Below are positions 2,972 to 58,611 of a stretch of 60,377 bases of DNA, piece after piece (within the stretch, counting starts at the first letter, position 1; every line of letters begins with the position of its first letter). The position numbers and the translations under genes are program-made. The DNA is from an uncultured virus (IMG/VR IMGVR_UViG_3300042519_000373) (taxonomy: Duplodnaviria; Heunggongvirae; Uroviricota; Caudoviricetes). The stretch lies in IMG/VR virus record IMGVR_UViG_3300042519_000373, positions 62,001 through 122,377 of that record. One strand, 5' to 3'. The notes below the pieces were generated by a model. The model was not told the origin of the DNA. It was given only the letters and a program-made list of their open reading frames with translations, and did no database searches.

Positions 2972-3184
2972 TTAACCGCCTTGTGTTGAGCCTTTAGTGA
3001 ATGCCGCACGTACATCACGTAACAATGCTTCATCGTCCCACTCTAGTGTTGTTTTACCATCCGGATGAGTGGTAACAGTTAAGTGACTACCTTTGACAAC
3101 TTTTGTTTCTGCAAAAACTATCTTAGCACCGCCGATTGTGCCGGGCATCTCTATTGTTGTTTCTTTCTTTTTACGTGTTGCCAT
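2972..3184 (-). CDS. Hypothetical protein
   Basis: ORF track; tight packing behind folE. Confidence 0.6.
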   Translation of the reverse strand: MATRKKKETTIEMPGTIGGAKIVFAETKVVKGSHLTVTTHPDGKTTLEWDDEALLRDVRAAFTKGSTQGG

Positions 3185-3186
3185 AA

Positions 3187-3888
3187 TTACCTCGGAGCAA
3201 AGTCTTGCTGTAGTTTGATGTTGTCAAAGAATTCTTTCTTTGTACTTTGGTCGTCTTTAAACGCACCTTTAAGCACAGTAGTCTGCGTCAATGAGCTATG
3301 TGCCATAATACCTCGATTCTCACAGCATCCATGCACTGCTTGAATGTAAACGCCTACGTCTTTGGCGTCAGTGGCTTTTTGGATTTCCCTAGCAATGTCA
3401 TTAGCAAGTTCCTCCTGGAGAGTACCTCGACGGGCACACCACTGAGCGATCCTTGTATACTTGCTAAGTCCGATGAGTTTCTCAGCCGCAATAATACCAA
3501 TATAAGCAACGCCACTAACGGGTTGGTGATGATGGCTACACATACTGCGAAGCTCGCTACGAACAACCAACATACCTTCGTAACGGTCCTCCGAATCATT
3601 TGGAAACGCTGTTGCGTCTGGTGCATCATCATATCTTCCTGCCATTATTTCGTTGTAGTACATTTTGGCCAGTCGACGTGCTGTGCCTTTACTATTTGGA
3701 TCAGTTTCGCGATCAATAAGCAATGTATCTAGCACTTTTTCAAATGCGGTTGTCGCTTCGTTGATAAGGTCTATTTTATCCATGGGTTTGATATATTCTG
3801 AAATATTATCACCAGCCCAGAATCTTTTTCCGTTTGCTTTCATTTTATCGCGTATGGCTTGCGATAAGTTTTTACTTGTATCTGTCAT
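3187..3888 (-). CDS. folE: GTP cyclohydrolase I
   Basis: SMCSHHHQP, IGLSKYTRI, LQEEL, HGCCENRGI motifs. Confidence 0.95.
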   Translation of the reverse strand: MTDTSKNLSQAIRDKMKANGKRFWAGDNISEYIKPMDKIDLINEATTAFEKVLDTLLIDRETDPNSKGTARRLAKMYYNEIMAGRYDDAPDATAFPNDSEDRYEGMLVVRSELRSMCSHHHQPVSGVAYIGIIAAEKLIGLSKYTRIAQWCARRGTLQEELANDIAREIQKATDAKDVGVYIQAVHGCCENRGIMAHSSLTQTTVLKGAFKDDQSTKKEFFDNIKLQQDFAPR

Positions 3889-3943
3889 TGTAGTTTTTCT
3901 CCGATGTTGAGGCAGTGGATTGCCATGTATATATTCTATACTA

Positions 3944-4756
3944 TTATTTAGGTTCAGTCAACCGTAGTAGCAAATTTTTCTGCACGGCTGATGAAATTAC
4001 ATTTAGGTTAACATTATGTTCTTTGGCATAGTTTATTAGTGCTTCTGTATCTTTTGGAAAGCAGTATCCACCAAATCCTAAAGAACCATCTATACCCGGA
4101 ACACGCATATGACTTTCACCAATACGTACATCTTGTTTAATTAAATTAACAATCACGTCATAATTTAATCCAGCTTTTTCAGCTAGTTGATAAAGTTCAT
4201 TCATGAACACTACCTTAGTAGCAAGAAAGTTGTTAATAGCATATTTGGCCAAGGCAGCATCTCCAATATTACAGAACTTAACTGATTCTAAATTCGGCTG
4301 CGTCATTTTGATAATGCGTTCTGCTTCGTTTCGATATGCTCTAACATCACCGCCAATAATACACCACTTTGCGTTGGCATAATCTCTACTGGCATTAGCC
4401 GCGGTCAAAAATTCTGGACTGTGTACTAGATTAGGATAGACTTTATTAAGACGTTGATATACATTTGGCGGTGCAGTTACTTTAGAAATAATAACACCTC
4501 GAAAGTCTTTTAGTTTTTCTAAAACACTTTCTAAAATACTTGTATCACAACTTCCGTCATCATTCATTGGACTTGGGACACATATAAAGATGCCCTCACA
4601 TGTCATCAACTCTGCGTAAGTTCCAACGTATCCTTTACGTACATCTGAGTCCACACATACAACATTATCTGGTACAAACTCGGTAGAAGATCGAACAGCT
4701 TCACCTACAAAGCCTAACCCTACAATTCCTATTCTGGGATAAAAAGAGTCATTCAT
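3944..4756 (-). CDS. Short UDP-glucose/GDP-mannose dehydrogenase family protein (no C-terminal domain)
   Basis: GLGFVG Rossmann motif, ICVPSP, SPEFL, KYAINNFLATKV, catalytic GFGGYCFPKD; only 270 aa. Confidence 0.85.
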   Translation of the reverse strand: MNDSFYPRIGIVGLGFVGEAVRSSTEFVPDNVVCVDSDVRKGYVGTYAELMTCEGIFICVPSPMNDDGSCDTSILESVLEKLKDFRGVIISKVTAPPNVYQRLNKVYPNLVHSPEFLTAANASRDYANAKWCIIGGDVRAYRNEAERIIKMTQPNLESVKFCNIGDAALAKYAINNFLATKVVFMNELYQLAEKAGLNYDVIVNLIKQDVRIGESHMRVPGIDGSLGFGGYCFPKDTEALINYAKEHNVNLNVISSAVQKNLLLRLTEPK

Positions 4757-5847
4757 TTTATATTCTCTAAAAGAATGTTAGCACTGAAAAACAAACTGGT
4801 TAGATCCTGTGCTTGTTTGTTTAATTGAGGAAGGAATTTATTATAATTTTCCATGTACTGCATTATCTTTTGACATATTTGCGGTCGATAGCCTTGATAG
4901 TTTTCCCAGTTACGAGTCCAGATTTCCGGATACTTAAATGTATCGAAATACATTTCAGAGTAGCTAAGACGATCTGGTACCATTGGAACGGCATCTACTA
5001 AGGCACCTTCGTAACAGCTAATGCCAAGAGTTTCCTGCAAGTTAGCACTGAACACTATTTTTGCTTCGCCTAACAAATTATGATATTCGTTTTTAGTCAG
5101 TTGTTGATCCTGACACACTACAAATTCATATTGTGGCAAGTGTTCTTTTAAGTCACGAAAGATTTCAACTTGCTTCTCGGGTGCAATACGATGCGGAAAT
5201 AAAATTAAGTCACGCTTTGGCATACCCTTGTATGCGGTAAGTATATCATCCATATACTCCATGGGCCAGCCTGTGCGTACAACCTTGTTGTTGAATAACG
5301 TATCGTCAAATACAGTCTTATACATACTTGCTTTACGATCCGGATCTGGTTGGATCAAGTTTTCGTAAAACATGTGAATATGAAAGTCTGTGGCAAAGTA
5401 GTTGTGATCAAAAGCATGGTAGAAACTTTTTTCAGCGTGTCTGACCCAAGGCTTGTTGCCAACAAGACGTCCTAGGAAGTCTTGTGGATCATAACTGCCA
5501 GCATGCCAAAGACCGTGTGTTGTTACTGGAATACCCAGCAGTTCACTCATGTACTTGAGATTGATGATACCAGGGTGCCAAGCATCAGTAAATATAAAAT
5601 GATCACCTGCATGAACGGCTCCGTCGCAAAATAGCCGACCCATCTGCTCAACCTGCCGAGCTTTGTAGATGTTTGTGCCGCCAAAATTAAGAAAAGCCCC
5701 AGGGGTAGTAGCACTAGGAATATCTGCGGGACCAGAGATAATTTGAACATTGTGTCCTGCCTTTCGTAAGAGATTAGGTACATGAGTCTTCCACTGACCC
5801 GTGTACCTAGTCTCAACTGATTCTAAATCAACGAGAAAAACTGTCAT
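4753..5847 (-). CDS. Glycosyltransferase, GT-B/GT4-like
   Basis: FPHRIAPEKQ and SANLQETLGISCYEG (E-x7-E) motifs; likely start MTVFLVDLE at 5847. Confidence 0.8.
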   Translation of the reverse strand: MTVFLVDLESVETRYTGQWKTHVPNLLRKAGHNVQIISGPADIPSATTPGAFLNFGGTNIYKARQVEQMGRLFCDGAVHAGDHFIFTDAWHPGIINLKYMSELLGIPVTTHGLWHAGSYDPQDFLGRLVGNKPWVRHAEKSFYHAFDHNYFATDFHIHMFYENLIQPDPDRKASMYKTVFDDTLFNNKVVRTGWPMEYMDDILTAYKGMPKRDLILFPHRIAPEKQVEIFRDLKEHLPQYEFVVCQDQQLTKNEYHNLLGEAKIVFSANLQETLGISCYEGALVDAVPMVPDRLSYSEMYFDTFKYPEIWTRNWENYQGYRPQICQKIMQYMENYNKFLPQLNKQAQDLTSLFFSANILLENIK

Positions 5848-6082
5848 TTCTGTTGTATTGTGGACGAGGGTTTTTACCCTTGTATTCAGTGCGAGGCCGA
5901 CGTTCACCTCCGCTGTTCCAACGCTGATAATTCTTGTATTCTGGAGAGCGATACAAGTCTGCTGGATTAAAATCCAACAAGTTGAAACGGCAATAATCAA
6001 GCCACTTATCGAGATCATCAAAGATCTTTTCAACTTCGGGTTTCATGAACAGGGTTTTTTGAATGTAATTTGGCTGTGCCAT
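5828..6082 (-). CDS. Hypothetical protein
   Basis: 84-aa in-operon ORF with an upstream AGG. Confidence 0.6.
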   Translation of the reverse strand: MAQPNYIQKTLFMKPEVEKIFDDLDKWLDYCRFNLLDFNPADLYRSPEYKNYQRWNSGGERRPRTEYKGKNPRPQYNRNDSFSR

Positions 6083-6097
6083 TTTTATAATACCTAA

Positions 6098-13948: not shown

Positions 13949-14365
13949 TTATTCTTCTAGATTAACAGCGTCGGTATTAAAAAATTCAGGGTTCGCTTTA
14001 TTAAATTTACGCATCACAATACCAGCTAGTTCGTGTGCTTGATTTTCTTCAGGGCTACCGGTAGCACCCGCACCTGGCTTCAGTCCAGTTTCTTCGTTTT
14101 GTTTGTAATGTACCATCTCGTGTGCAAGAGTTCTTAAAATATCTAAAGGATGTCTATCTTCAATTGCAATATTGATTATTTTAGTTTCACTGTTAAAACT
14201 ACCAAAACTAGGTTGATCATCTACGCTGCCAATACGTAAATGCATTTTAATTTTTGGAACAGATTTTAATTTAAGTTCATTGACTGCAAAGGGAAGAAAC
14301 TCCTGAAGTATTTTCATAAAATCAGGTTTTGAATTTACATCCTCTAATAGGTCTATGATTTTCAT
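13949..14365 (-). CDS. Zincin-like metallopeptidase, probable internal virion protein
   Basis: LRTLAHEMVH (HExxH) with a downstream ENQA; likely start MKIIDLLE at 14365. Confidence 0.7.
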   Translation of the reverse strand: MKIIDLLEDVNSKPDFMKILQEFLPFAVNELKLKSVPKIKMHLRIGSVDDQPSFGSFNSETKIINIAIEDRHPLDILRTLAHEMVHYKQNEETGLKPGAGATGSPEENQAHELAGIVMRKFNKANPEFFNTDAVNLEE

Positions 14366-15552
14366 TACTTGATAATTCTTCGATCTAATGCTGCCCATAG
14401 CTTAGATTCGTAAGCTGGCTCTTTAGCCTTGTGTTTTACATCACCTTGCTTTTGTGCTTTCTTTTTATCTTTGTGAGCACCTGCACCACTTTGTACTGCG
14501 TTCTTGGCAACAAAGTTTCTAGGCTTAACTGCATGTTTCACAGCACGTACACCTTTCTTGTTTTCTTCTACACTTTGTTCTTCTACTTTGCCGGCATTGT
14601 GTGCTTTCCATGCAGCACCGTATGCCTTGCTTTTTTCAGTTTTAGTTAACTTACCATCTTTAGCATATCCCTTTTTAATATGCTTGACCATGCGTTCGGC
14701 TTTGGCTCCCGGCGGTGCTACCTCCGCCACACCTTCATTGTTTTCATCTTCAGCATCAAAATCATATTTGTCGTATTGAATGTGACCGTCGTGTCCGATG
14801 CCAGACAGCACCACCATAACATAGTCGTCGCCATAATCGGGTTCCCATCCTAATGCTCTTAATTCATCTGCATTGTCGCCGTCAGTCCAGTATTGGTAAG
14901 CCAATGGAAATAATTTTGCCTTGTATTTTTCCATACTTGGCAAGTATGATGGATCAAGATCAACTGGTTCAAATTCTTGTGTCGGCCACATCTCGTCAGC
15001 ATCGCCTGGAGTAATTTTTCCAGTCATTTTTCTCATTGATTTATCAAATTTTTCGTCACCTGTGGCCTCCGCCACACCTTGCTTTTTATTATCCAATTTG
15101 GTAAACGCTTTAACAAAATTAGGACCACTTTTCATGCGTTTTGTGTCACTGCGTTTTGTGGGATCCATTCTGTGTTTAAGATTATCTTTATCTAATTTTG
15201 TTAGATAACTGGTTAGCGTAGCATCACTAACCTCCGCCACACCTTGCTTGTATTGTGTATCTAAGTGACGCTTGATCTTTTCAGCCTTTTGACGAGCAGC
15301 CTCACGCTTTTGTGGGCTTGTTTCATTCTTGCTCCAATGCACTGCGGTGTCATGGTCTTTCTTTAGTTGAGCAATCTTATCTTCCTTGCCTTCCGCAGCG
15401 TTAGTTTCTTGAAACAACTTTCCACTATCCAATGCATTGTCAGTAGGTTTCTGACGTTTAATCATTCCCTTACTGCCTTTTGCAACTGTTGCTACTGATG
15501 CTGAGCTTGTGCCTCCAGTAGTTGCTGATTCTAAAAGTTGTTTAATTCTCAT
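14365..15552 (-). CDS. Modular probable internal head protein with GVAE-delimited modules
   Basis: N-terminus MRIKQLLE; three (Q/E)GVAE motifs separating dissimilar charged segments. Confidence 0.7.
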   Translation of the reverse strand: MRIKQLLESATTGGTSSASVATVAKGSKGMIKRQKPTDNALDSGKLFQETNAAEGKEDKIAQLKKDHDTAVHWSKNETSPQKREAARQKAEKIKRHLDTQYKQGVAEVSDATLTSYLTKLDKDNLKHRMDPTKRSDTKRMKSGPNFVKAFTKLDNKKQGVAEATGDEKFDKSMRKMTGKITPGDADEMWPTQEFEPVDLDPSYLPSMEKYKAKLFPLAYQYWTDGDNADELRALGWEPDYGDDYVMVVLSGIGHDGHIQYDKYDFDAEDENNEGVAEVAPPGAKAERMVKHIKKGYAKDGKLTKTEKSKAYGAAWKAHNAGKVEEQSVEENKKGVRAVKHAVKPRNFVAKNAVQSGAGAHKDKKKAQKQGDVKHKAKEPAYESKLWAALDRRIIK

Positions 15553-15920
15553 TTTGTTAGTTTCTTTCTATCTGGTACAGGCCCGTATATATTAGTCGAG
15601 TCTAACTCGCAACTATCCATATCGCCGTGATTCATATCTTCATAACTGGCACCGGCAGCTTTGTATGCTGCTTTGAGCATGTCTGCTTCCACTTGAGTGT
15701 AAGGATGTGCAGTCTTTTTCTTTCCTGCCCAACTCTTTGAATCGATGTCTAATTTATTTTTTCCATCGCTCATAGCTGCGGCCATGCCTACTCTAAAGCT
15801 AACATAACCGCTATCTGCTTTTTCGGCGTCTGAATAACGATGCAGACCCCTAGTAGATTGTTGCTGACGTTTTGTTATCTTACCTTCTTTTCTTTCAGCG
15901 ATGAATTCTTTTGCTCTCAT
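15549..15920 (-). CDS. Probable internal head protein
   Basis: N-terminus MRAKEFIAE resembles the T4 capsid-targeting sequence MKTYQEFIAE. Confidence 0.65.
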   Translation of the reverse strand: MRAKEFIAERKEGKITKRQQQSTRGLHRYSDAEKADSGYVSFRVGMAAAMSDGKNKLDIDSKSWAGKKKTAHPYTQVEADMLKAAYKAAGASYEDMNHGDMDSCELDSTNIYGPVPDRKKLTK

Positions 15921-15928
15921 AATGTTAT

Positions 15929-16195
15929 TTATTTTTTACCAAACCAAAGTTCGAACCAAGCCGGTGTACCCGGTTTAATTCCTTGTTCACGCATTATGCG
16001 AGCATTTTCATTACCGTGCTGACTATGCAAAGGTGTGTCTCTCTTTTTTAAGTATTCACGCATACGCTGTTCTGCACCTAACTCTCCTAACCAGTTACTA
16101 GATTGTAGTGCATGTATAGGATCATCTGGGCTTAGAGCACAGTCTGGATCAGTTGAAGTATCTACAGGAAATCCTGCTATTCGATATTGCTTCAT
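15929..16195 (-). CDS. Hypothetical protein
   Basis: 88-aa ORF ending IKPGTPAWFELWF; coupled to the upstream gene. Confidence 0.65.
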   Translation of the reverse strand: MKQYRIAGFPVDTSTDPDCALSPDDPIHALQSSNWLGELGAEQRMREYLKKRDTPLHSQHGNENARIMREQGIKPGTPAWFELWFGKK

Positions 16196-19100
16196 TTATT
16201 ACTTTCAAACAGCTTTAGAATAGCCAGGGTCATTTCAAGTTCGTAGGCTTCGCCAATTGGCACACACTTGTCTTTACCGTTCTTAGTACCTGCGTACTTA
16301 TAACCTTTCCAACAGGCTTTGCCGTCTGCACCTTTAATCTTTTCTTTTAAGTTGCCCCATTCGTCTTTACTGGTTCGATCATTCTTAGCAATCTGTGTGC
16401 CCATGTACTGACTATCGCGTTTCTTATCACCAGCTGCTCTAAGTTTGGCTGTCATTCCATCTTTAGGATCAGTTAAGCGTTTAGATACAGTATCTATAGC
16501 ATTGCTGCCAGCCTCCGCCATACCTTGCTCTCTATGCTTTTTAGCATCATTATCAAACTGCTTGTTAGTTGCTTTAACAATTCCTTTGAAACGTTTATGA
16601 CCCTTAGCATAGTCGCCCGCTTTGTCTGCGGCAGTTGCTTGATCACCGGCGGCCTTTTTATATTGTCCTAATTTTTCATTGGACAACTCTGCGACAATCT
16701 GTCTTAAACTTTCTACAGCCTTGCTTTCGTTGATCTTAGGATCCATGCCCATTTCTTTTTGGCTTAACAAATAATCCCAGACACTGACCAACATCATTTC
16801 TGCTTTGGCAATCTTTTCTTGTCCCCATTCTGGCAAGTTATCGTTGCTCTTAATAGTTTTTAATAAACCATCAACTGCACGAGCCATTGTGCGTAGATTA
16901 CTCTGTGCCATTCCTGCTTCGTCGTCGTATTCGCCGTTGAAGTCTTCATTCTTAGCTTTTGCTTTACCTGCTTTCATATTTGCCATCCAATGTGCTAATT
17001 GTCCTTTACGGCCGCCTTGTTTAGCTACTTTACGTAGATTGCTCACTGACGATTTTGTAGGAACGCCGTGACGTTTACTGTCGCCCTTGTCTTGTGGATT
17101 ACGTCCATCCGCAAAGTTTTCTGCTACAGATCGATCTCCGCTCTGTAAAAGAGATACAATTTTAGGTGCTCTTCTACCAACTTGTGAATACCATGCACTA
17201 TTTTTTAATGCATTTGCTGCTTGATCTATGTTTCCTGCTTGCATGGCTTTTGTAAAATTAGGCCAAGCCTTCCACCATCTTGGACCCATGTTAAATGTTA
17301 GATCAATTAGAGCAGCCTGTCCGTTCATGTTTAAATTACTAAATCCAGGAATTTTTTCTGCTGCCTGTTTATGATGCTGATAATCCTTTTTAAACAGATT
17401 CATTATTTCTGCGTCTGAAAATGTTCTTTTCCACTCTGAAGGGAGAGTCTTGCCATCACCAATTAAGTGACCTACTCCTACAGTCCATAATCCTTTTGTA
17501 TCTTGGTATGGTTTATTTTTTACACCTTCATGATCTTTAACCATATTCATGATATCGTCTTCACTAGAAATTTTAGTAACAGCCGCTTTGGCCCTATCTC
17601 TTGCTGGTTGATCTATGTTTGTGTTAGGACCACTTCGAACTCCGGTTTGGGTTGGTTCGTCGGGCCGGACGGTTGCTGGATTAACGACCCCCCTGCCACC
17701 ACCCATTTCTGGTTTTTGTTGACCAACAAATGCCTGTGCTTTATCTCTTGTCGTTTGATCTATGTTAGAGTTTGGACCTTGTTTAACTGAGGGTTGGGGC
17801 ATTGGAGAAGATTGATCTTTCACTTGTCTTGCCGCAATTGTAGACAGGGTATCTCCAGGCATTACTTTATAAGTTGTGCCGTTAGGCAATTTTAACATCT
17901 GCCCTGCATTAATTTTGTTCACATCTTTAATATTGTTTAATGATGCAATTTTTAACATTTGCCGTTTACTGTTGCTGTTGTCTTGTGGATTACGACTATC
18001 AGCAAAGTTTTCTTGATTCATGCTCTCACCACCATCACTACCACCATCTCCACCGTTACCACTATAACCTGCATCAAATCCGTACCAACCATATGGCCCT
18101 GGACCCCATGCTGCACCTTTACTTTTTTTACGTTTACGTTCTTCAATAGTCTTTTCATTTACAATTTTTTTAGGACTCATTAGTGCATTAAACAATCTCA
18201 TTTCACCTAGTGCAGGTTGTTGAACAGTCTGCGGAGTAGGTAGTACAGCAGGCTTCTTAACTGCTGGCTTTGGTTGAGGTGTGCTCATTCCGGTCTTTGA
18301 CACATCCATTAAATGTTTAATCCATTGTGACGGTAATGGTTTTGCTCCATCCTGGCCGCCATTGAATGCATCATTCCACATTTGGAATGCTTGTTGCTCA
18401 TCTCCAGTTTTTAACACGTTACGTAGCTTAGTAAAGCTCATGCCAGTTCCTCTAGGAGTAACTTCTAATTGTACCTTAACATGCTCGTATCCAGGAAACT
18501 TATTAACTGCCTTCATTAGGGCCTGTGCGATAGGCATCTTGGCCTGATCTTCACCTACCATAATAATAACATTATCGTAGCGTGGTGGCTTGCCTGGCAA
18601 CGGGTTGATTAACTCGTGCTTGATCTTTTGCATCAAAGATCCGCCCTCTTGTGTTACAGCACTGATATTGCCTGCATACTCGGGATACAATTGTTTCCAA
18701 GTTTTAATTTTGTCAGCAACTGGAATAGGATCGTCTGCACCTACTGCACTGCCCATAAACAGATAAGGATCGCCGCTGACTTCTTTTGCCTTATTAATTG
18801 TAAGACCAAATAGCTGTTGATGACCTTTGTGTCCCACAAAGCTACCGATAGCAACTACCGCAGTTTTGTTTTCACCACGCGGCTGTTCTGCACGAGCGGC
18901 AGCTTTGGCAGCGTTCTTTTGGGTAATAATATCTTTTTGTTGTTGGCTAGTAACTTTGATAGGGCCAAGACGACTGTTGATAACAATACCTTCGTAGTCT
19001 TGACCTAATATATCTTTGCCAATAATGTTAGGATCTGCATCAATTGCCTTTTCCAGTGCAATCTTAACAGGCATTAATTTTTCTTCTACTTCGCGTCTTA

Positions 19101-21000
19101 GTTGCAAACTGGCACGATCTCTTTTGCCTGCTGTGTCAGATACAATTTGTTTTAGTTCTTCGATATTATCTAAAGGATTAATAATCTCAGTAACATCAAG
19201 TCCGTCTTTTTGTACTAGACTATTACTAAGGAATCTAACACTTCCTTGTCCGCCTAATTTGCTTAGACTTGTAACAACATCGTTAGCATCAGGTACATCT
19301 TCTCCGGAACTAGCATCTACTACACGGAACGGCACAAGAACTAATTCTACACCTGGAGGAAACTTATCGTATTGAATTCCTACAAATTTTAATTTGCCCT
19401 CTGACGTTTCGGCTGCAAACGGCAAGAACAATACTTCACAGGTGACCTGTTTATTAACAAGAAAGTCTGCACCTAGCTTGCTATCAACCAATTTGATAGC
19501 GTTCATCATTTCATTAAACAGTTCATCAAACTTTTCTGCACGACCTAAAATTTCAGGATCAGTTGTGCCCTTGTCTTGATGATATTGTACAAATCCTGCT
19601 TTATATCTTGGAGGAGTATTGCTGGTAGCCATAAAAGGCTTGCCTTCTGCATCCTTACCAAAACGTCCGCCAAATCCGTCAATCTTAACATTTAACGGAA
19701 TGTTTTGTAATTTAAAATTACCATTACCATCGTGAATCTCGTCCAATAGATCTAAAAAGTCAATAGGCTTTAGATCACGTAGGTGTGGCATGTTCTTACG
19801 GAACTGTGCTTTAACTTCTGCTTCTTGCAAACTTTCAGCAGTAACTCTGTACGATGCCTTGTATTGCTGCTTCATCTGTTCAAGATCACTAGGTGTCTGA
19901 ACTCCTAATTTATTGATCATTAAATCCAATGCAGCAGATTTTTCTGCACTATCACGCTCTGGATCGCCTTTGTAAAGACCTTGGGCACCCTTGCCAAATA
20001 TTTTGTCAATAAATGCAGACAACACTGACTGCTTTTCTTCTGGAGTTACTAGCGTATTCATTGCATCAACTAAACCAGTAAAGCTCCAGTACTTGCTTTC
20101 TAATTGTGCAGCTTGTTTAGGATTTAATCTCGAACCAAAGATAGATCCAAAAATCTTTCCAATGTCTTGTTCGTAACCAGTTGCTGGTAATGCCTGCATA
20201 ACTGGCATACCGTTACTAATTAAAGGCTGTCCGTTTGCATCTAATACTGGTTCGTATTTGGCACGTAGGCCGCCGCCTTCTTTACTGGATACTGCAAAGC
20301 TGACCATGTTATCAGTTGTAGGAACATCTTGTATTTCTTTGGCCTTGCCTCGTCCTACAGCTTTGCGTAGTAAGAAATCTTTTCTACTTAATGATGCTAG
20401 ACTTTGAATTAAAAACTTGTGGAATACACCCTTAACTCCTGCGTTTAGATCATCCCAGCTGCTGCTATGACTAAATTTGCTCCATGGAGTGGGTTCGTCT
20501 TTGTCAAACTCTACAAATTCTAAGTCAATTTGCACTTTAATAGGTGGGTCTTGTAGCTCCCATAAACTGGAGAATTGTTCGTTGCCTCTTTGGAAACCTA
20601 AGAACTTGGCATTGCCTACCATCTTACCTTGACTAGCAGATAACCATTGTTCTAATTCTTGTTCGTTTTCTTTGTTGACCTGTGTGTCAATGTCGCCTAC
20701 TTTTGGTTTCTTTTCTACAAATTGTTGGTCAGTAATACCTTTGGTATTAAAGAAGTGTAGACTACTTCCACTTAGAAATTGTTTACTCTGTAGTAGTTGC
20801 GGATTCCACAAAGGTTTTTTGTATTTTTTTGCAAAAGAACTGTTGATATTAATCAACAGTGTATCTAAAATTGGTACAATGTAGGAACGATTATGCACTT
20901 TAAGATCGATTTGCTGTGCATCGTGCCCGCCAGGTAGCGATAAATTTCCACCTTCTGACACAACTTTCTTTTTGTTACTAAACAGCTCATTTAAATTCAT
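16192..21000 (-). CDS. 1602-aa multidomain polyprotein: Pol-beta-like NTase, ligase-like domain, HIGH nucleotidyltransferase, permuted LysM, T4-type lysozyme and small modules
   Basis: SGSS...GDID...QID; KIDG...EVLF...EGIVI...IKV; GSFVGHKGH...VGED...MSFTKLR; LNNIKDVNKINAGQMLKLP and YKVMPGDTLSTIA; HEG...YQDTKGLWTVGVGH...LIDLTFNMG...SAWYSQVGRRA. Confidence 0.8.
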   Translation of the reverse strand: MNLNELFSNKKKVVSEGGNLSLPGGHDAQQIDLKVHNRSYIVPILDTLLININSSFAKKYKKPLWNPQLLQSKQFLSGSSLHFFNTKGITDQQFVEKKPKVGDIDTQVNKENEQELEQWLSASQGKMVGNAKFLGFQRGNEQFSSLWELQDPPIKVQIDLEFVEFDKDEPTPWSKFSHSSSWDDLNAGVKGVFHKFLIQSLASLSRKDFLLRKAVGRGKAKEIQDVPTTDNMVSFAVSSKEGGGLRAKYEPVLDANGQPLISNGMPVMQALPATGYEQDIGKIFGSIFGSRLNPKQAAQLESKYWSFTGLVDAMNTLVTPEEKQSVLSAFIDKIFGKGAQGLYKGDPERDSAEKSAALDLMINKLGVQTPSDLEQMKQQYKASYRVTAESLQEAEVKAQFRKNMPHLRDLKPIDFLDLLDEIHDGNGNFKLQNIPLNVKIDGFGGRFGKDAEGKPFMATSNTPPRYKAGFVQYHQDKGTTDPEILGRAEKFDELFNEMMNAIKLVDSKLGADFLVNKQVTCEVLFLPFAAETSEGKLKFVGIQYDKFPPGVELVLVPFRVVDASSGEDVPDANDVVTSLSKLGGQGSVRFLSNSLVQKDGLDVTEIINPLDNIEELKQIVSDTAGKRDRASLQLRREVEEKLMPVKIALEKAIDADPNIIGKDILGQDYEGIVINSRLGPIKVTSQQQKDIITQKNAAKAAARAEQPRGENKTAVVAIGSFVGHKGHQQLFGLTINKAKEVSGDPYLFMGSAVGADDPIPVADKIKTWKQLYPEYAGNISAVTQEGGSLMQKIKHELINPLPGKPPRYDNVIIMVGEDQAKMPIAQALMKAVNKFPGYEHVKVQLEVTPRGTGMSFTKLRNVLKTGDEQQAFQMWNDAFNGGQDGAKPLPSQWIKHLMDVSKTGMSTPQPKPAVKKPAVLPTPQTVQQPALGEMRLFNALMSPKKIVNEKTIEERKRKKSKGAAWGPGPYGWYGFDAGYSGNGGDGGSDGGESMNQENFADSRNPQDNSNSKRQMLKIASLNNIKDVNKINAGQMLKLPNGTTYKVMPGDTLSTIAARQVKDQSSPMPQPSVKQGPNSNIDQTTRDKAQAFVGQQKPEMGGGRGVVNPATVRPDEPTQTGVRSGPNTNIDQPARDRAKAAVTKISSEDDIMNMVKDHEGVKNKPYQDTKGLWTVGVGHLIGDGKTLPSEWKRTFSDAEIMNLFKKDYQHHKQAAEKIPGFSNLNMNGQAALIDLTFNMGPRWWKAWPNFTKAMQAGNIDQAANALKNSAWYSQVGRRAPKIVSLLQSGDRSVAENFADGRNPQDKGDSKRHGVPTKSSVSNLRKVAKQGGRKGQLAHWMANMKAGKAKAKNEDFNGEYDDEAGMAQSNLRTMARAVDGLLKTIKSNDNLPEWGQEKIAKAEMMLVSVWDYLLSQKEMGMDPKINESKAVESLRQIVAELSNEKLGQYKKAAGDQATAADKAGDYAKGHKRFKGIVKATNKQFDNDAKKHREQGMAEAGSNAIDTVSKRLTDPKDGMTAKLRAAGDKKRDSQYMGTQIAKNDRTSKDEWGNLKEKIKGADGKACWKGYKYAGTKNGKDKCVPIGEAYELEMTLAILKLFESNK
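17072..18013. repeat. 51-bp imperfect direct repeat flanking the LysM-lysozyme cassette
   Basis: 17072-17122 vs 17963-18013, 45/51 identical; encode ENFADGRNPQDKGDSKR and ENFADSRNPQDNSNSKR. Confidence 0.9.
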
Positions 21001-21918: not shown

Positions 21919-22602
21919 TTAGCCCTTAACTAATGTATCTCGAGGTATGTATTCGTACACTTTACGAATGTTATTACCTAAGAACAAATGAGTCATGGTT
22001 AACATCTTACTGTCCTTGACATAAAAGAACGGATCTTGTTTATAAGAGTATCTTCCAGTCATCCATTTTTCGGTTGTGGGACTAATTTTAATATTGTCGC
22101 CGTATTTTTTAGCCCACTCGTAGAATTGAAATTTCACATTAGATGCTACACTTCGCATAACAACTTTATAAGCGTATTTTTCATATGGAATAACATCACA
22201 TAAAATTCGTTTGTTTTCGTTATCTAATAAGAATGTTAATTGGTCCGGAGTTTCTGGTTCGGATATTGTCCATACCCAAGGAGATAAGTCTTTTACAATA
22301 CTGTCATAGACAGCAGGGTCTTTACAGAAAAGGCAGAACTTACTGCCCTCTGCTCTGACCTGTATTTCTTCTTTGCGACCTAGGTAAGATATAACTGCCT
22401 TGGTAAATTCACGAAGTTTATCCTTGTCAACTGCAATCTTTGAATATCCCAGATTAGCAACCTTACCGTCACAATAATCTAAAACAGTGTCAGCACCATA
22501 TCGAACTATTCTACTAGAGGCCGATACAAGACATTCAATCTTGTAGGGCCACTTGTTGTAGAATAGCTTATCGACTTTCTGTCGCTTTATCAATTTCAAC
22601 AT
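21919..22602 (-). CDS. Hypothetical protein
   Basis: 227-aa ORF overlapping the end of clpA. Confidence 0.65.
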   Translation of the reverse strand: MLKLIKRQKVDKLFYNKWPYKIECLVSASSRIVRYGADTVLDYCDGKVANLGYSKIAVDKDKLREFTKAVISYLGRKEEIQVRAEGSKFCLFCKDPAVYDSIVKDLSPWVWTISEPETPDQLTFLLDNENKRILCDVIPYEKYAYKVVMRSVASNVKFQFYEWAKKYGDNIKISPTTEKWMTGRYSYKQDPFFYVKDSKMLTMTHLFLGNNIRKVYEYIPRDTLVKG

Positions 22603-24838
22603 TTTCTACTACGGGTAAAATTTCAGGATAAGTTAAGGTAAGATCATTACTGTTAGCACCTACTTCAACAACTCCACCGTTTACTAACCGACCAAATAAA
22701 ATTTCCTTACTCAGCGGCTTCTTAATCATATCATCAATTGTACGTTGTAGTGGACGAGCACCCATCTTACGATTAAATCCTTTCTTGATTAACAATTCGG
22801 CAGCGTCAGCAGTTAACTTAACAGCAACATTCTTATCTTTCAACAAACTGTTTAGTTCGTCAATAAACTTCTTGACAATCTTAGCCATGGTATTGTGATC
22901 TAGTTTACCAAACTTGATAATACCGTCTAATCGATTGCGGAATTCTGGTTTAAAGAAACTGTTAATTGCACCATCAGTTTCGTCACCTCTTTCTAAACTA
23001 CTAAATCCAACTGCATTACGATCGTTATCGGCAGCACCTAAATTACTAGTAAGGATAAGAATGGCATTTCGACCATCAGCCTTCTTACCATTAGATCCAG
23101 TAACATAACCATTGTCCATCATTTGTAGTAGTAAGTTAGCAACATCAGGATGAGCTTTCTCAATTTCATCAAACAGTAAAATAGCAGTTGGATGCTCTTG
23201 CAGTTTGGTAATCAACATACCTGCATTGTCTTCAAATCCAATATAGCCGGGGGGAGCACCAATAAACTTAGCAATTGAGTGTTTCTCTTGGAATTCACTC
23301 ATATCAAAGCGAACTAGTTCTACTCCCATACTTGCAGCCAATACTTTTGCAGTTTCAGTCTTACCTACACCGGTTGGTCCTGTAAATAGGAAACTACCTA
23401 CTGGTTTGTTTAAGCTCTTTAAACCTGCTTGTGCAATAAAGATTTTATCTAACAATATTTCAATTGCAGTTTCCTGACCAAACACTTTGTTACGCATGTT
23501 CTTGTCAAGGTCTTTAAGATTCTTGTTTTCTTTTTGTGCAATTTGATCTAAAGGTAAGCCAGTTAACTTTGACACTTCAAATAAAATTTCATCGTGATCA
23601 ACAATGCCTGCTTCTTCGTCTCTGACTTTGAATCTAGCACATGCACAGTCAATTAGGTCAATTGCTTTATCTGGCAGCTTCTTATCAGTCATATACTTGA
23701 TAGAATATTTTACGCTGTCAATAACTGCCTGATTAGTGATCTTAACACCGTGATGCTGTTCATAGTACTTCTTAAGACCTTTAAGGATTTTAATAGCAGT
23801 AGCTTCATCTGGCTCGTTAACTACAACACGTTGGAATCGACGCATCAGGGCACGATCCTTTTCAAAGTGCTTACGGAATTCTTCCCATGTAGTCGATGCC
23901 ACAACTTTGATAGTACCTTTACCTAATGCTGGTTTCAACATATTTGCCATGTCATTAGATCCGCCACTTGCTGATCCAGCACCGTTCATCATATGTGCTT
24001 CGTCGATGAACAAGATACAGTTCTTTTTCTTTTCAAGTGCAGTAATAACCATCTTTAAGCGTTCTTCAAAGTCGCCACGATACTTACTGCCTGCTAGTAA
24101 TGCACTGATATCTAGACTGTAAACAGTATGACCTTGAATAAACTTAGGAACCTTGCCTTCTTCAATCTTGCGAGCAAGGCCCTCTGCAATAGCAGTTTTA
24201 CCTACACCTGGGTCGCCGATCAACATAACATTTGATTTTTGACGGCGTGCTAGTGCAAGTTGAATTTCTTCAATTTCTTTCTCACGACCGATAACAGGAT
24301 CAATCTTTTTCTGCTTGACCCTATTAGTTAAGTTTGCACAGTATTGAACAATCATTTTTTCTAGTTGATTGCTACCTACTTCGCTAGCCTCACCGTCTTC
24401 GTTTAACGCACTGTTATGTAGAAATTCAATAAACTTGTCTTTATCAATTTTAGCCTTGCGTAGAAAGAAGTTAGCAAAGCTCTTCTTTTCACTAAAAATA
24501 CTAATAAAGCAGTCAATTGGTTCAATTACTGTACGGCCGCTAAACAACACTTGTGTAAAAGCACGATTCAACATACGCTCTACAGTGTTTGTTTTCTTTG
24601 GACGATAATTTTCTTTGTCAGTTTTAATATCGTTAAGATCATCTCGAATAAACTTTTCGAGACTCTTCTTTAACAACTCAACTTCGGCACCAAAATCTTT
24701 TAGCATCCCTTTGAAGTTTTCATCAGTTATCATACTGTACAAAAAATGTTCCAGCGTGATATACTCATGTTTATGTTTAGCGGCAACTTCGATCGCACGT
24801 TCAAACATTCCTTCGAGATCGTTATTTGGTTCCAGCAT
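22568..24838 (-). CDS. clpA: ATP-dependent Clp protease ATP-binding subunit ClpA
   Basis: HEYITLEHFL N-domain; GDPGVGKT, KYRGDFEERLK, FIDEAH; GPTGVGKT, RFDMSEF, GAPPGYIG, GARPL. Start MLEPNN at 24838. Confidence 0.95.
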   Translation of the reverse strand: MLEPNNDLEGMFERAIEVAAKHKHEYITLEHFLYSMITDENFKGMLKDFGAEVELLKKSLEKFIRDDLNDIKTDKENYRPKKTNTVERMLNRAFTQVLFSGRTVIEPIDCFISIFSEKKSFANFFLRKAKIDKDKFIEFLHNSALNEDGEASEVGSNQLEKMIVQYCANLTNRVKQKKIDPVIGREKEIEEIQLALARRQKSNVMLIGDPGVGKTAIAEGLARKIEEGKVPKFIQGHTVYSLDISALLAGSKYRGDFEERLKMVITALEKKKNCILFIDEAHMMNGAGSASGGSNDMANMLKPALGKGTIKVVASTTWEEFRKHFEKDRALMRRFQRVVVNEPDEATAIKILKGLKKYYEQHHGVKITNQAVIDSVKYSIKYMTDKKLPDKAIDLIDCACARFKVRDEEAGIVDHDEILFEVSKLTGLPLDQIAQKENKNLKDLDKNMRNKVFGQETAIEILLDKIFIAQAGLKSLNKPVGSFLFTGPTGVGKTETAKVLAASMGVELVRFDMSEFQEKHSIAKFIGAPPGYIGFEDNAGMLITKLQEHPTAILLFDEIEKAHPDVANLLLQMMDNGYVTGSNGKKADGRNAILILTSNLGAADNDRNAVGFSSLERGDETDGAINSFFKPEFRNRLDGIIKFGKLDHNTMAKIVKKFIDELNSLLKDKNVAVKLTADAAELLIKKGFNRKMGARPLQRTIDDMIKKPLSKEILFGRLVNGGVVEVGANSNDLTLTYPEILPVVENVEIDKATESR

Positions 24839-25338
24839 TATTTGTATTTCCTTTTGATTGATTTCTTTACTGCCAACGCCCACTTGAGAGCACTTGTTCT
24901 ATTTTGAAATGTGATTCCTTCTAGATGATCAAATTCATGTAAAAAGCATCGACACTCGTAACCAAAAAATTCAGCTTCTTGGGTCTCACCTTTTGAGTTT
25001 TGAAACCTAACAAGAATTCCTCTTGGTCTTTTTATTTTAGCATAAATGTTGGGAAAACTCAAGCATCCTTCCTCTTCTTCGAGCAAGTCGTCTGTTACTC
25101 TCGCAATGATTGGATTGAAAAATGCCTGTGCATGATCTCGATATTTCTGATGTCCCATAACAAACATACGAGTTCTAACACCTATTTGATTAGCAGATAA
25201 TCCAATGCCGCCATTGGCAAGCATAGCTTCAATCATGTCTTTTTCAAGTTGAACAGGATCGGTTAGTGGATTTTCAAAATCAAATTCTGGCATTCTTTCA
25301 GCCAATATTGGGTCTGGATTTTTTATAATTGTCAACAT
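24838..25338 (-). CDS. def: Peptide deformylase
   Basis: GIGLSANQIG, EGCLS, HEFDHLEG motifs. Confidence 0.95.
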   Translation of the reverse strand: MLTIIKNPDPILAERMPEFDFENPLTDPVQLEKDMIEAMLANGGIGLSANQIGVRTRMFVMGHQKYRDHAQAFFNPIIARVTDDLLEEEEGCLSFPNIYAKIKRPRGILVRFQNSKGETQEAEFFGYECRCFLHEFDHLEGITFQNRTSALKWALAVKKSIKRKYK

Positions 25339-30285: not shown

Positions 30286-30293
30286 TATTTATA
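30286..30293 (-). promoter_or_regulatory. T4-type late promoter TATAAATA
   Basis: Exact TATAAATA on the minus strand, 17 nt before the ATG at 30268; the TAAATA core recurs before many other genes. Confidence 0.6.
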
Positions 30294-39669: not shown

Positions 39670-40503
39670 TTACGATATCACTGTTCTATCAGTGAATAGT
39701 CTCCAATTGGCTCCGTCATAGAAACAAGGTTGCCCACCGCCCGCAGCATCTACTACATAAAGTATTGCACCTTGTCGTGTAATTGCACCTAACGCAGATA
39801 ATTGTGCAGTAGTTGCAGTAGTTAATACAAAAGGACTGTTAACAGTAATTTGTCCAGCAGCCCGTAAATTAAGATCGTTGCCTGATTGAATAGTTGCAGC
39901 AGTGCTTACTCCGGTAACAGTTAGCGTTGAGATGTAAAGAGTCTGCACAGTGTAAGTATTGCCCACTACTGTAACAGCCCCAGTTGCTCCTAGATTACCT
40001 GTTGCACCAGTTAGTCCAGTTGAGCCAGTTAGGCCTATTTGACCCGTTGCACCAGTAATACCAGTAGCACCTGTTGCCCCTCTTAGACCAGTAGCACCAG
40101 TAGAACCGTCATTGCCAGTACCAGTAGCACCGGACGAACCAATTGCACCCGTAGCACCTGTGGCACCTTGACCAGTAGCTCCTTGTGGTCCGGTTGCCCC
40201 TTGAGGGCCAGTAGCACCTGTGCTGCCCTGTGCTGCCGCAGTTCCGGGGATTCCTTGCAATCCGGTAGCACCACCCGGTCCTGTTGATCCACTTTGCCCA
40301 GTTGCACCAGTAGCACCTGCAAACGCTACAGTTCCGTCTAATCCTCTAGGACCTGTGGCACCCGGCATACCAGTTGCACCTGTGGCACCTCTAGGTAATG
40401 GGCCTGCAACCCATGCTGTTGATGTGCTGTTATAAACCCAAAGACTGCCGTTGTAAGTGTAAACTTGACCAGCTATCGGGCTTGATGGAAATTGAATTGC
40501 CAT
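39670..40503 (-). CDS. Collagen-like fibre protein
   Basis: Gly-X-Y (mostly GAT) run; N-terminal MAIQFPSSP domain. Confidence 0.8.
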
Positions 40504-40524
40504 TGTGTATTCCTATATTTCTAA

Positions 40525-43473
40525 TTACGCACCACGCATCATGCAGCCGTTAAACCATGTAATGTTTCCGCCAGCAACGGTAATATCTTTACTGCTGCCG
40601 CTAGTCTGTTGAATATAGACTTCAAAATAATCTCCAGTTCCGTTAGCATAAGCTATAGTGCTTACGCCCATGCTAAAGAAACTAGCACCTACTTCTGTGC
40701 CACTTGCATTCCAACCACGCTTATACTCTGATCCATTTTTCCAAATAACTAACATGCTTTCACCAGTACCCATAGTACCGCTTATGCGAACTGCGGCATT
40801 TAGTTGATAATAACCTGCAACAGTGGGCGTAAATCTTGAACTGGCAAAATTTCCATTAGTGTCAAAATCTTCAAGTTGGAACAACACTTTTTGTTGTGTT
40901 CCAGAAGTAATTGTCTGCGTTACTCCCGAGTCTGGATAAACTGAGAATGCAGGGCCGTTTACAGCCTGACTATTATTGACTGAAATATTTCCGCCAACAT
41001 GTAAGTTTCCGCCAATGCCAGCACCACCTACAACTTGTAGAGCACCAGAGTTTGTTGAAGTTGCACTGGTAGTATTTGTAATTGTAAAGACGCTACTTAA
41101 TGGATTTGCAATTGCACCTGTTGCACCAGCAGGACCAGTGGCACCTGTAAATCCTTGAAATCCTCTTGCACCAGTAAGACTAATAGACCAATCTTTAAAT
41201 GTTCCCGGCCCGTTAATGGTATATGGAGCAATACCTATATTAGTGCCAGTATACCATTCAACGTAGCCGTCAATAACTGTGCTAAATGCAGTACTGGTAA
41301 ATGCCACTGCACGAACACGAGTTGATGTTGTATACGCATTAGTTCCGTATGCTTTATCAACTTGAAATACAAAAGTCGAAGTACTGGTAGTTATAACTAA
41401 GGTAGTTGATGTAGAAATTAGTTGTAGGTATCCAGGTCCAGTTGATCCTGTTGGACCAGTGGCACCAGTAGATCCCCATAGACCAGTAGCACCAGTAGAT
41501 CCCCATTGCCCTGTAGCCCCAGTAGACCCAAACTGTCCGGCTGCACCTGTAGCACCGGTAGAACCACTACCAGTAGCACCTGCTGGGCCAGTAGCCCCTG
41601 TTGATCCTCTAGTTCCAGTCGGTCCTGTAGCACCTGTTGCTCCAAACGCTCCGGTAGTGCCTTGAATACCTGTAGCACCTGTACTACCGAACTCACCAAC
41701 GGCACCTGTAGCACCGATGAATCCAGTTGCACCAGTTGAACCTGTGGCACCCAGACCAGTTGAACCTGTTAATCCGGTTGCTCCTGTTGATCCTTGATCA
41801 CCTTGCGGTCCAGTTGAACCTGAAGCACCTTGACCGGTGGCACCGTTTTGTCCCTGTGGGCCTGTAGCACCCTGTGCACCGGTTGCACCTGTAGCACCAG
41901 ATCCTGTAGCACCTGCTGGACCAGTAGCACCAGTAGCACCTGTTGCTCCAATAGCACCTGTCGCTCCAGTTGCACCTGCTCCGGTTGCACCAGTTGATCC
42001 CTGAGCACCAGTAGCACCAATATTTCCTTCAGATCCTTGAGGTCCAGTAGAACCTGTGCCGCCTTGCAATCCAGTTGCACCAGTAGATCCAATTTCTCCC
42101 TGAGCACCTGTTGCTCCTTGACCTGCAAACGTTCCAGGAATGCCTTGGGGCCCAGTAGCACCTTGAGGACCAGTAGCACCTGTAGCACCTGTAGCACCTG
42201 TTGAACCAACTGGCCCAGTTGCACCTGTAGCACCTGTAGCACCAGTTGATCCAATATTTCCTGTAGCACCTGTACTACCACTACCTGTTGCCCCTTGAAG
42301 TCCAGTAGCACCGGTAGCACCAGTAGATCCAATTTCTCCCTGAGCACCTGTAGCACCTGCACCAGTAGCACCTTGAGGTCCAGTAGCACCGGTAGCACCA
42401 GTAGATCCAATACCCGTTGCTCCGGTAGCACCATCCGGTCCTGTAGAACCTCTAGCACCTTGTCCGCCGACTAATGTTATAGTCCATGCTTGGAATGTTC
42501 CTGCACCAAAGCTAGTTAACGGTCTAATAGTGAGCTGATCTCCAATAAAACTTTCAACAATGCCGTCAAAGTTTGATAAAATATCAGCGTCCGCAGTAGC
42601 CCTTACTCTAGAACTTACTGTATACGCTACAGTACTAGACGATAAATGAGTTACGAAAGTTACAGTGTTTAAACTGATAGTTGCAGTAGTTTGAGAATAC
42701 AAAGGAATGAAACCAACTCCGGTTGCACCTGTGCTACCACTACCAGTTGCACCAGTTGCACCGTCTACGCCCGGCAATCCGCTTGCACCAGTAGACCCTT
42801 GACCTGCAAATGTGCCAGGAATGCCTTGGGCACCAGTTGCACCGGTTAAGCCTGTAGCACCTGGCCCGCCAGTAAATCCGGTAGCACCGGTGGCACCCTG
42901 ATACCCAGTTGCACCCGTAGCACCGACTGAACCAGTTGCTCCCGTTTCTCCAACAGCACCACCAGGACTTGCTGATACCCAAACAGAACCGTTGTAAGTA
43001 AACAGTTGTCCTGTTTCTTGAGTATCAAGCCACATGTCCCCAGCCGCTGCCACCGATGGTCTTGAAGTTGAAATTACTGCGGTCAGTCTAGGACCAGTTG
43101 CACCAGTCGATCCTCTAGTGCCAGTTGCACCCCGAGCACCAGTTGCACCCATTGAAACTACATTGACTACACCTTCAACAATTTCTAAACCGTCGCCTAC
43201 TATAATTGTTCCTAGAGTAGAAGTAGTTGCAGTAGTAGCAACAGTTGTTACATTTAAAAATCCTTCTTGGTCAATATTTAAACCATCGCCAATTTTAATT
43301 CCGCCAATAGTGCTAGTAGTTGCCGTTGACACATTGAATGTGACTAATTCATTATTAATGAATTCGCCTAACTGCCCTACAGTCATCTGTTTAGTTAGGT
43401 TGCCGTCAGCAACAGGCATACTAGTTGCCGTTGTTATTGAACCAATAACGGGTAGATTACTAATGGTACTCAT
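40525..43473 (-). CDS. Collagen-like tail fibre with a C-terminal C1q-like domain
   Basis: Long GAT/GST repeats; duplicated globular insert; C-terminal PAFSVY...FTPTVAGYY...GDYFEVY...WFNG. Confidence 0.82.
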
Positions 43474-58440: not shown

Positions 58441-58611
58441 TCACCAATGTCTAATAACACCAGCAATAATGAACAAATTGGTTATCATGTACACAGATAC
58501 AATTAGTGTACGAATAAGGGCAATACGATCAGCTTCTCGATCAGTATCGCCCATTTTTTCACCTAGGGCCTTGGCCCAAAGTCTCCATACTTTACGCAAA
58601 TAGATCTTCAT
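58441..58611 (-). CDS. Small membrane protein
   Basis: WRLWAKALGEK...ADRIALIRT...NLFIIAGVIRHW; exact start uncertain. Confidence 0.6.
   Translation of the reverse strand: MKIYLRKVWRLWAKALGEKMGDTDREADRIALIRTLIVSVYMITNLFIIAGVIRHW

Follow-up and report, generated by a model that had tools for sequence, protein, structure and literature searches.

Related systems and the recurring linker

Two kinds of described systems come closest to the locus reported here. According to the available portions of the papers cited in this text, the leaders of the T4 internal proteins, 10-19 residues long, are capsid-targeting sequences (CTS) that are removed by the protease gp21 (PMC9026906, PMC3012670), an enzyme that cuts after glutamate at L/I-X-E (PMC9026906). 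In the giant phages phiKZ, 201phi2-1 and SPN3US, inner-body and ejection proteins are also cut after Glu by a gp21-related protease (PMC9026906, PMC5694885, PMC10052503), and head-internal proteins of giant phages are often cut at several sites per protein (PMC9026906). The second kind is that of the promoter-early stem-loop (PeSL) cassettes in the hyperplastic regions of T4-type phages, where a short, conserved and functional motif flanks non-essential cassettes (PMC2839356, PMC4122927) and provides the patch of homology at which these are deleted, inserted or replaced among close relatives; its authors likened the system to integrons and showed mini-circles by inverse PCR (PMC2839356). Here we describe a locus that resembles both, in a stretch of 60,377 nucleotides (the window; positions 62,001 to 122,377 of IMG/VR record IMGVR_UViG_3300042519_000373) from an uncultured lake-water jumbo phage of the T4 type, where a gene for a 395-amino-acid (aa) protein carries a short repeated linker, (Q/E)GVAE, between unrelated protein modules.

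The linker was found as three exact copies of the 15-mer AAGGTGTGGCGGAGG and a fourth copy with one mismatch (AAGGTATGGCGGAGG), all on the minus strand (Table 1). The chance expectation for the 15-mer is 0.05, and four or more matches were reached in 0 of 100 dinucleotide shuffles. The exact copies lie in one open reading frame (ORF), that of the 395-aa protein, reading QGVAE at aa 103-107 and 158-162 and EGVAE at aa 273-277, and the fourth lies in the neighbouring ORF of 1602 aa, reading QGMAE. The copies of the 395-aa gene are spaced by 165 and 345 bp, and the intervals encode a basic segment of 55 aa (isoelectric point, pI, 9.9) and an acidic one of 115 aa (pI 4.1, D+E 28 vs K+R 10). These results bear out an earlier sequence-only reading of the window, which had quoted the coding-strand sequence and described the same three exact copies and one mismatch copy, in frame as (Q/E)G(V/M)AE, with one basic and one acidic interval. 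The partial GCGGAAGG it had noticed near 15390 turned out to be a decayed copy, NAAE/GKED (here and below a slash after Glu marks a predicted cut), while a search of the full virus record, of the kind it had proposed for the whole genome, returned the same four copies and nothing further: GGTRTGGCGGAGG has 4 matches there, none beyond those known.

Read from its start, the 395-aa protein consists of a leader, a SATTGG module and then the GKED, VSDA, ATGD, VAPP and NKKG modules, and it matches no Pfam family at E<=0.01. The modules are small and unrelated (53-115 aa, some basic, one acidic), each behind a site ending in Glu, of which the coded linker (Q/E)GVAE is the commonest. The two decayed borders have intact counterparts elsewhere. 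TNAAE stands ahead of the GKED module in 6 of 37 junctions, and another lake-metagenome contig (loose end at 15396) has an intact linker at the NAAE/GKED site; the NKKG module likewise stands behind GMAE/NKKG in homologue P0034 and behind GVAE/GDVEENKKG in P0013.

We regard it as moderately probable that this is a capsid-internal polyprotein locus in which the linker is a gp21-type cleavage site doubling as an in-frame recombination joint. The leader would carry the 395-aa precursor into the prohead core, where the phage's Peptidase_S77, a gp21-family serine protease, would cut after Glu at hydrophobic-x-Glu, a pattern that VAE, MAE, LLE and IAE fit. The modules would thus be cut free as separate small proteins inside the capsid and would probably exit together with the DNA in the way of T4 IPI-III and Alt. 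Since the linker is kept nearly letter for letter, it would also offer a 15-18 nucleotide (nt) in-frame identity patch at every module border, and recombination between copies could delete, insert, swap and reorder modules with a product that is always open and processable. If this is true, one short sequence keeps any linker recombinant in frame and its modules releasable by the head protease, a cheap reassortment of capsid cargo for uncultured freshwater jumbo phages of a large T4-like family. More than 2000 protein clusters have modules in common with the 395-aa gene. T4 capsid cargo includes anti-restriction and host-takeover proteins. The locus would further yield a list of mini-proteins that are candidates for injection, and [V/L/I/M]-A-E as a testable cleavage specificity of a Peptidase_S77 enzyme from beyond the enterobacterial T4 phages; the modular evolution through linkers that PeSLs exemplify for genes would also reach segments of proteins.

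The likeness to T4 IPI, IPII, IPIII and Alt lies in a short leader ending hydrophobic-x-Glu, with a gp21-family protease in the genome (PMC9026906, PMC3012670), and in a variable locus of small non-core proteins that are highly diverse and for the most part basic, with a putative lysozyme-bearing internal protein adjoining it. It is a likeness known here from sequence, from which we infer packaging and cleavage. Each T4 internal protein has a gene of one module and is cleaved once, whereas one frame here joins several unrelated modules, with a repeated, nucleotide-conserved linker between them. As in the PeSL system, insertions, deletions and replacements are bounded by a motif (in the relatives L017, P0004, P0005 and P0006, described below), but PeSLs are intergenic promoter-terminator elements moving whole genes (PMC2839356), whereas the linker lies in genes, in frame, and moves protein modules; an intergenic sigma-70-like promoter with a terminator stem-loop was not found for its 82 matches in related loci, all of them in ORFs and with no partner arm. 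The giant-phage proteins share the Glu cuts, but their motif is S/A-X-E, and the available portion of PMC9026906 describes no longer conserved linker, nucleotide conservation or module shuffling at their sites. In our junctions S/A-X-E is not the rule, the third residue before the cut (P3) being V/L/I/M in most, and the head module of this phage is T4-type, not phiKZ-type. The statement of the sequence-only reading that it knew of no description of such a system was too strong, as both halves have close precedents in the portions available to us (PMC9026906, PMC2839356). We found no paper on the GVAE linker motif or on the in-frame combination of cleavage site and shuffling, and what appears new relative to PeSLs and T4 internal proteins is a linker placed inside genes and in frame, with a putative function at the protein level.

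Leaders, junction glutamates and the head protease

The genome carries both a gp21-family protease and a T4-type head module (Pfam: Gp23, 2.8e-96; Peptidase_S77, 5.3e-25, gene at 5461-6096 of the phage's own record, minus strand; Portal_T4, 2.7e-109; all above cutoffs). Head genes were also seen as phrog_207, phrog_138 and phrog_213 in a PHROGs profile scan, which took in 82 of the 103 ORFs of the genome. CTS-type leaders are present as well. T4 IPII and IPIII start MKTYQEFIAE and IPI starts MKTFKEF (translated from NC_000866); three adjacent genes of the linker locus have leaders ending hydrophobic-x-Glu, namely MRAKEFIAE in the 123-aa protein, MRIKQLLE in the 395-aa protein and, from an internal Met, MKIIDLLE in the 149-aa protein, and all three are among the 7 of 103 ORFs that match a loose leader pattern. 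Homologues have leaders of the same pattern, and a given module may stand right after such a leader in one protein and after GVAE in another.

Of 159 distinct junctions ahead of five module types, 158 have Glu as the residue before the module start (P1), and it is kept even where the rest of the site differs (TNAAE, LDMVE, LIPME, QDVKE, KQLLE). At P3, mostly V/L/I/M, three examples have V in 22/23, 16/17 and 29/59 junctions. Over the 103 ORFs the density of [LIVM]AE is highest in a putative scaffold gene between the protease and capsid genes (5 in 369 aa; the mean over the genome is 0.139 per 100 aa), and the 395-aa gene has 3 in 395 aa. The proposal of the sequence-only reading that xAE is a protease site thus fits a gp21-type protease in the same genome and the P1 Glu of these junctions, and we postulate that the modules are cleaved, packaged and injected.

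An unlikely alternative is that the protein is never cleaved and acts whole as beads on a string, with GVAE an inter-domain linker copied along with the modules, in which case it need not be in the virion at all. Shuffling and DNA conservation need no protease, the cleavage is itself read from the sequence, and the linkers fall, as flexible linkers would, in low-confidence stretches of an AlphaFold2 (AF2) model (aa 106-109, 150-165 and 236-288). However, a mere linker leaves unexplained why its last position is Glu at all junctions but one while the other positions vary, why the same modules stand directly behind T4-type cleavable leaders, and why, in a genome with a gp21-family protease, the putative scaffold is the gene richest in motifs of this class.

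The segment that follows the leader of the 395-aa protein (SATTGGTSSASVAT) is similar to the N-terminal region of the capsid protein of this phage, around and after its predicted cut YLAE/SATAGATSTGNIAT, and may be a capsid-protein mimic for targeting. The same segment forms a C-terminal module behind VAE/ in P0221, P0232 and P0240, and Glu precedes SATAG-type segments in 23 of 23 junctions. As an exact equivalent of the T4 capsid site, the YLAE of the capsid protein was rejected: the alignment puts it opposite T4 gp23 residues 74-77, not 63-65. T4 gp23 is presumably cut after Glu65.

Module exchange and conserved linker DNA

The 395-aa protein has 2068 similar-length homologues (E<=0.001, 6251 candidates), most of them aligning over 14-43% of the query at 70-98% identity, and a further 685 shorter ones. 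G[VMIL]AE occurs at least once in 109 of the best 120 homologues, up to 7 times per protein, and in none of the other 11. The ends of BLAST high-scoring segment pairs (HSPs) cluster at aa 107 (21/185), 160-164 (13/185) and 273-277 (9/185), and their starts at aa 102 (12) and aa 156 (7). Cut at the linker, the best 120 homologues yield modules of exactly fixed length (55 aa 25 times, 53 aa 19 times, 54 aa 5 times) that are found in many different orders and neighbourhoods. P0004 and P0005 (95% and 88% identical) correspond to the query minus modules 2 and 3, with the joint YKQGVAE/VAPP, and P0006 has a different 100-aa module in place of the middle modules. In a family of proteins of about 95 aa the module order is reversed, a DUF7230-like module standing ahead of a DUF6321-like one.

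The clearest comparison is with the related locus L017, where the flanking genes are 94-100% identical and the polymerase protein 97% identical to those of the window, while the orthologous gene encodes 300 aa with other modules between NTAE/ and the C-terminal module. The DNA homology ends exactly at 15388, in the decayed linker, and is back at 14589. The neighbouring 1602-aa protein aligns over aa 1-1029 and 1294-1602 to aa 4-974 and 941-1273 of its L017 counterpart, which is without the LysM-lysozyme cassette and has a single LNE/NFADGRNPQD. Two expectations of the sequence-only reading therefore hold: module breakpoints coincide with the repeat, as the HSP ends, the fixed module lengths and L017 agree, and orthologues differ by whole modules. 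Judged from these genomes, relatives swap, delete and reorder whole modules at the linker. Related genome fragments of 164-270 kb have 0-3 copies of the searched pattern each, all at one locus.

Joints and loose ends in metagenomes were taken from assembled contigs (Logan) of four lake runs, in which rare variants drop out. Among the matches listed (24 of 64), 12 of the 24 contig loose ends lie no more than 25 nt from a linker, in zones making up about 14% of the stretch; such ends fall at 15044, 15068, 15085 and 15090 near copy 2 and at 14719 near copy 3, and a contig with its loose end at 16540 joins the same upstream module to GVAE/GGGNFA. No deletion joint between linker copies was among those listed for the four runs, contigs from which rare variants are dropped; one unrelated skip joint was listed, from 16198 to 16541 (side 21).

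Summed contig depth over single modules (zones 14377-14530, 15070-15146, 15224-15377 and 16533-16600) was several-fold above that of the rest of the gene, e.g., 112.9 vs 13.7 in run X24, which shows that individual modules are common to many co-occurring phages.

The linker is also kept at the nucleotide level. In 89 distinct GVAE contexts from related loci, Gly is coded by GGT in 85 (background 0.44), Val by GTG in 68 (background 0.17) and Ala by GCG in 73 (background 0.07), and the information content falls to about 0 outside -5 to +14 nt. The consensus is CAAGGTGTGGCGGAAGG; the window copies have GAG. A scan of the viral collection that allowed all 16 Val/Ala codon pairs gave at least 125 stretches and at least 145 distinct contexts, and GTG-GCG was used in 104 of the 145 among the matches listed, where the background product predicts about 2. 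Across 35 homologous flank pairs (<=93% nt identity), G/V/A codons of the linker are identical in 94 of 105 cases, as compared with 70/103 for other conserved four-fold residues upstream and 38/70 downstream, and a smaller codon-identity test gave 48/48 for the linker vs 129/187. In 918 kb of loci the DNA motif has 82 matches, and all 82 lie in long ORFs (at least 100 aa), in the frame that reads GVAE. The codon comparisons indicate that linker DNA is conserved beyond the peptide, and recombination, rather than another nucleotide-level constraint, is what we infer to keep its letters. The sequence-only reading had all three codons of GTG-GCG-GAG preserved at their wobble positions; this stands for Val and Ala, and extends to Gly, but fails for Glu, which is at background.

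Several observations weigh against a cleaved, recombining polyprotein. The Glu codon is unbiased (GAA in 69 of 89 contexts, background 0.79, the GAG of the window being the minority form), which counts against simple copy-and-paste, expected to fix the Glu codon too; in the flank pairs Glu codons are identical in 26/35 cases in the linker and 28/40 in the flanks. Linker variants are no more alike within a gene than between genes (0.469 vs 0.432; 412 of 2000 shuffles reach the observed value), and there is therefore no sign of local gene conversion. P0004 and P0005 are on contigs of 2-4 kb, where assembly collapse is possible. In one family of small two-module proteins the content stays the same but the linker has drifted (GVAE, GAAE, MVE, VSE, AME, PME), so the full linker is not needed for function there. 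The linker array was found in no isolate by tblastn against 50,697 phage records, the only match being aa 263-337 in 14 cyanophage records; that stretch is DUF6321-like, and in cyanophage S-RSM4 such a module ends a 113-aa protein starting MKTFKQF, like T4 IPI. The predicted capsid site YLAE/S is about 9 alignment positions from the T4 LTE site (residues 63-65). The AF2 model of the whole 395-aa protein (40-row mosaic alignment) is poor, with a mean predicted local distance difference test score (pLDDT) of 56.5 and a predicted template-modelling score (pTM) of 0.27, the GKED module alone being confident (a helical hairpin, pLDDT ~92), and low confidence at the linkers would say little. Lastly, the T4 late-promoter octamer, which we take to be TATAAATA, is absent near the linker genes, with a single match in the window at 30286 vs 5.4 expected from shuffles; the phage family probably uses another late-promoter consensus despite its gp55-like sigma factor, and the octamer result says nothing on the timing of the linker genes.

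The same codon figures could also reflect translational pausing, which we think quite unlikely: the rare GUG-GCG (in the window also GGAGG, which is Shine-Dalgarno-like) would slow ribosomes at the borders and let the modules fold singly, and the shuffling would be ordinary illegitimate or homologous exchange. In its favour, no Ala codon in these genes is rarer than GCG, and GTG is among the minor codons for Val; a bias on exactly two codons with Glu at background and the lack of within-gene homogenisation agree with it too. Yet Gly uses its commonest codon, GGT, the rarest Val codon is GTC (background ~0.10) and not GTG, most family members have GGAAGG (69, vs 20 with GGAGG, of 89), no in-frame start codon follows the GGAGG copies of the window (read by eye), and breakpoints placed exactly in the linker are left unexplained.

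A joint that is both cut and recombined might, alternatively, be more than a passive homology patch. We give little credence to the idea that the 17-nt linker is an actively recognised recombination signal, either Chi-like or a hot spot of some nuclease or recombinase of the phage, or to its corollary, equally doubtful, that the locus is a dedicated diversity generator for capsid-delivered mini-proteins, a kind of in-frame "protein integron" whose joints the head protease would remove once the protein is made. Passive homology accounts least well for the fixation of GTG-GCG across hundreds of unrelated flanks in the collection in the absence of within-gene homogenisation.

Neighbouring genes, other enzymes and genome context

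The sites of the putative polyprotein could be cut by an enzyme other than the gp21-family protease, be it the 149-aa HExxH protein encoded next to it, a host enzyme or the Lon-like protease, whose gene is six genes away, a reading that seems very unlikely. The HExxH gene overlaps the 3' end of the 395-aa gene and has a weak match to DUF6782, a metallopeptidase family (E 0.015), and 29 of 87 related loci have the Lon-like gene (phrog_4871, 4.2e-244) in synteny. However, the HExxH gene is present in only 14 of the 87 loci, with linker genes in most, and its Pfam score is under the cutoff, whereas hydrophobic-x-Glu is the published gp21 specificity in the available text of PMC9026906 and an S77 protease is encoded in this genome. 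The HExxH protein may be a packaged metallopeptidase; it is not a constant partner of the linker genes.

Least probable of all, in our judgement, is that a dedicated site-specific enzyme (integrase, homing-type nuclease or retroelement) moves the cassettes in the manner of integrons, since against the unusually strong letter conservation and the HNH and homing-endonuclease-like genes elsewhere in the genome (phrog_1314, phrog_7363) stand the absence of any integrase or reverse transcriptase among the 82 of 103 ORFs scanned and in the syntenic locus, a motif without inverted repeat or conserved flank, its restriction to coding sequence in frame, and just 1-4 copies per genome, all at one locus. 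The likeness to integron gene cassettes that the sequence-only reading had loosely drawn extends to exchangeable units with a recurring sequence between them at one locus, but not to the mechanism: the units are in-frame protein segments, with no attI or promoterless-ORF logic, no IntI-type integrase was found among the ORFs scanned, and the linker, a non-palindromic coding word of 15-18 nt with flanks of about 0 bits, has no attC-type inverted repeats. Module exchange is most simply explained by general recombination.

Table 1. Features of the linker locus and neighbouring genes (window coordinates; a slash after Glu marks a predicted cut)
Feature	Position	Strand	Remark
Linker copy 1, K-QGVAE/V (aa 102-108)	15231..15245	minus	border of GKED and VSDA; exact match
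Linker copy 2, K-QGVAE/A (aa 157-163)	15066..15080	minus	border of VSDA and ATGD; exact match
Linker copy 3, N-EGVAE/V (aa 272-278)	14721..14735	minus	border of ATGD and VAPP; exact match
Linker copy 4, QGMAE/A (aa 1492-1497 of 1602-aa protein)	16512..16526	minus	one mismatch
Decayed linker NAAE/G (aa 51-55) before GKED module	15388..15399	minus	left edge of block replaced in L017
Decayed linker SVEE/N (aa 327-331) before NKKG/DUF7230-like C-terminal module	14563..14574	minus	
395-aa modular gene, putative capsid-internal polyprotein	14365..15552	minus	homologues mostly partial, modules delimited by linker
Leader MRIKQLLE/, CTS-like, start of 395-aa protein	15529..15552	minus	SATTGGTSSASVAT segment next
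Capsid-like segment (SATTGGTSSASVAT...ALD), aa 9-54 of 395-aa protein	15391-15528	minus	capsid gene at 3136-4317 of the phage's own record
123-aa gene, start MRAKEFIAE/	15549..15920	minus	T4-type capsid-targeting leader
1602-aa protein, LysM and phage-lysozyme domains	16192..21000	minus	C-terminal run of same shuffled modules
LysM-lysozyme cassette (aa 998-1294 of 1602-aa protein)	17119..18009	minus	direct repeat E/NFAD(S/G)RNPQD at both flanks
149-aa HExxH (HEMVH) gene	13949..14398	minus	internal Met gives CTS-like start MKIIDLLE
Cys-pair mini-module DGKACWKGYKYAGTK...C, C-terminus of 1602-aa protein	16192-16330	minus	
771-aa Lon-like ATP-dependent protease	22568-24883	minus	
Peptide deformylase gene	24838-25338	minus	
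QueE-like gene	1182-2039	minus	
GTP cyclohydrolase gene	3187-3888	minus	
QueD-like gene	58592-59098	minus	

The 1602-aa protein matches Pfam Phage_lysozyme (1.1e-15), LysM and phrog_2083, "internal virion lysozyme motif", and has Glu-type sites at aa 998, 1295 and 1493; from these matches it is read as a putative internal or ejected virion protein. The repeat at the flanks of its lysozyme cassette is a second kind of cassette border, a tag after the Glu site. Its terminal Cys-pair mini-module is common to a hypothetical protein of the cyanophage isolate S-RSM4 (L104 710-1309, gene 061), with a similar CWKDYKQIGMKKKGGKQVPNC in L017, and thereby links the lake phages to marine cyanophage proteins.

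In a large family of related loci the gene order is syntenic: Lon-like protease, three small genes, the big protein, an 88-aa gene, the 123-aa gene, a variable region, an 89-aa gene and the DNA polymerase. A hypervariable locus of putative capsid-internal proteins stretches from the conserved 123-aa gene to that of the DNA polymerase. The virus record has 122,377 bases and a CheckV completeness of 35%; a protein identical to the 395-aa product is present on contigs of up to 381 kb, which makes this a jumbo phage. All 24 of the 24 runs containing the stretch are lake-water metagenomes (contigs), and no RNA run was among the sequencing runs listed. Besides the head module, Pfam and PHROGs matches include a family B DNA polymerase, a clamp loader, the gp55-like late sigma factor and T4-like baseplate genes.

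Among the remaining genes of the window, the peptide deformylase gene lies with the Lon-like gene just upstream of the internal-protein cluster, and genes for a GTP cyclohydrolase and for QueE-like and QueD-like proteins point to a phage DNA modified with 7-deazaguanine. The G+C content, about 40% in the region of the linker genes and ~0.40 elsewhere, rises to 0.47-0.52 in 40001-46000, over collagen-like tail-fibre genes (40525-46007).

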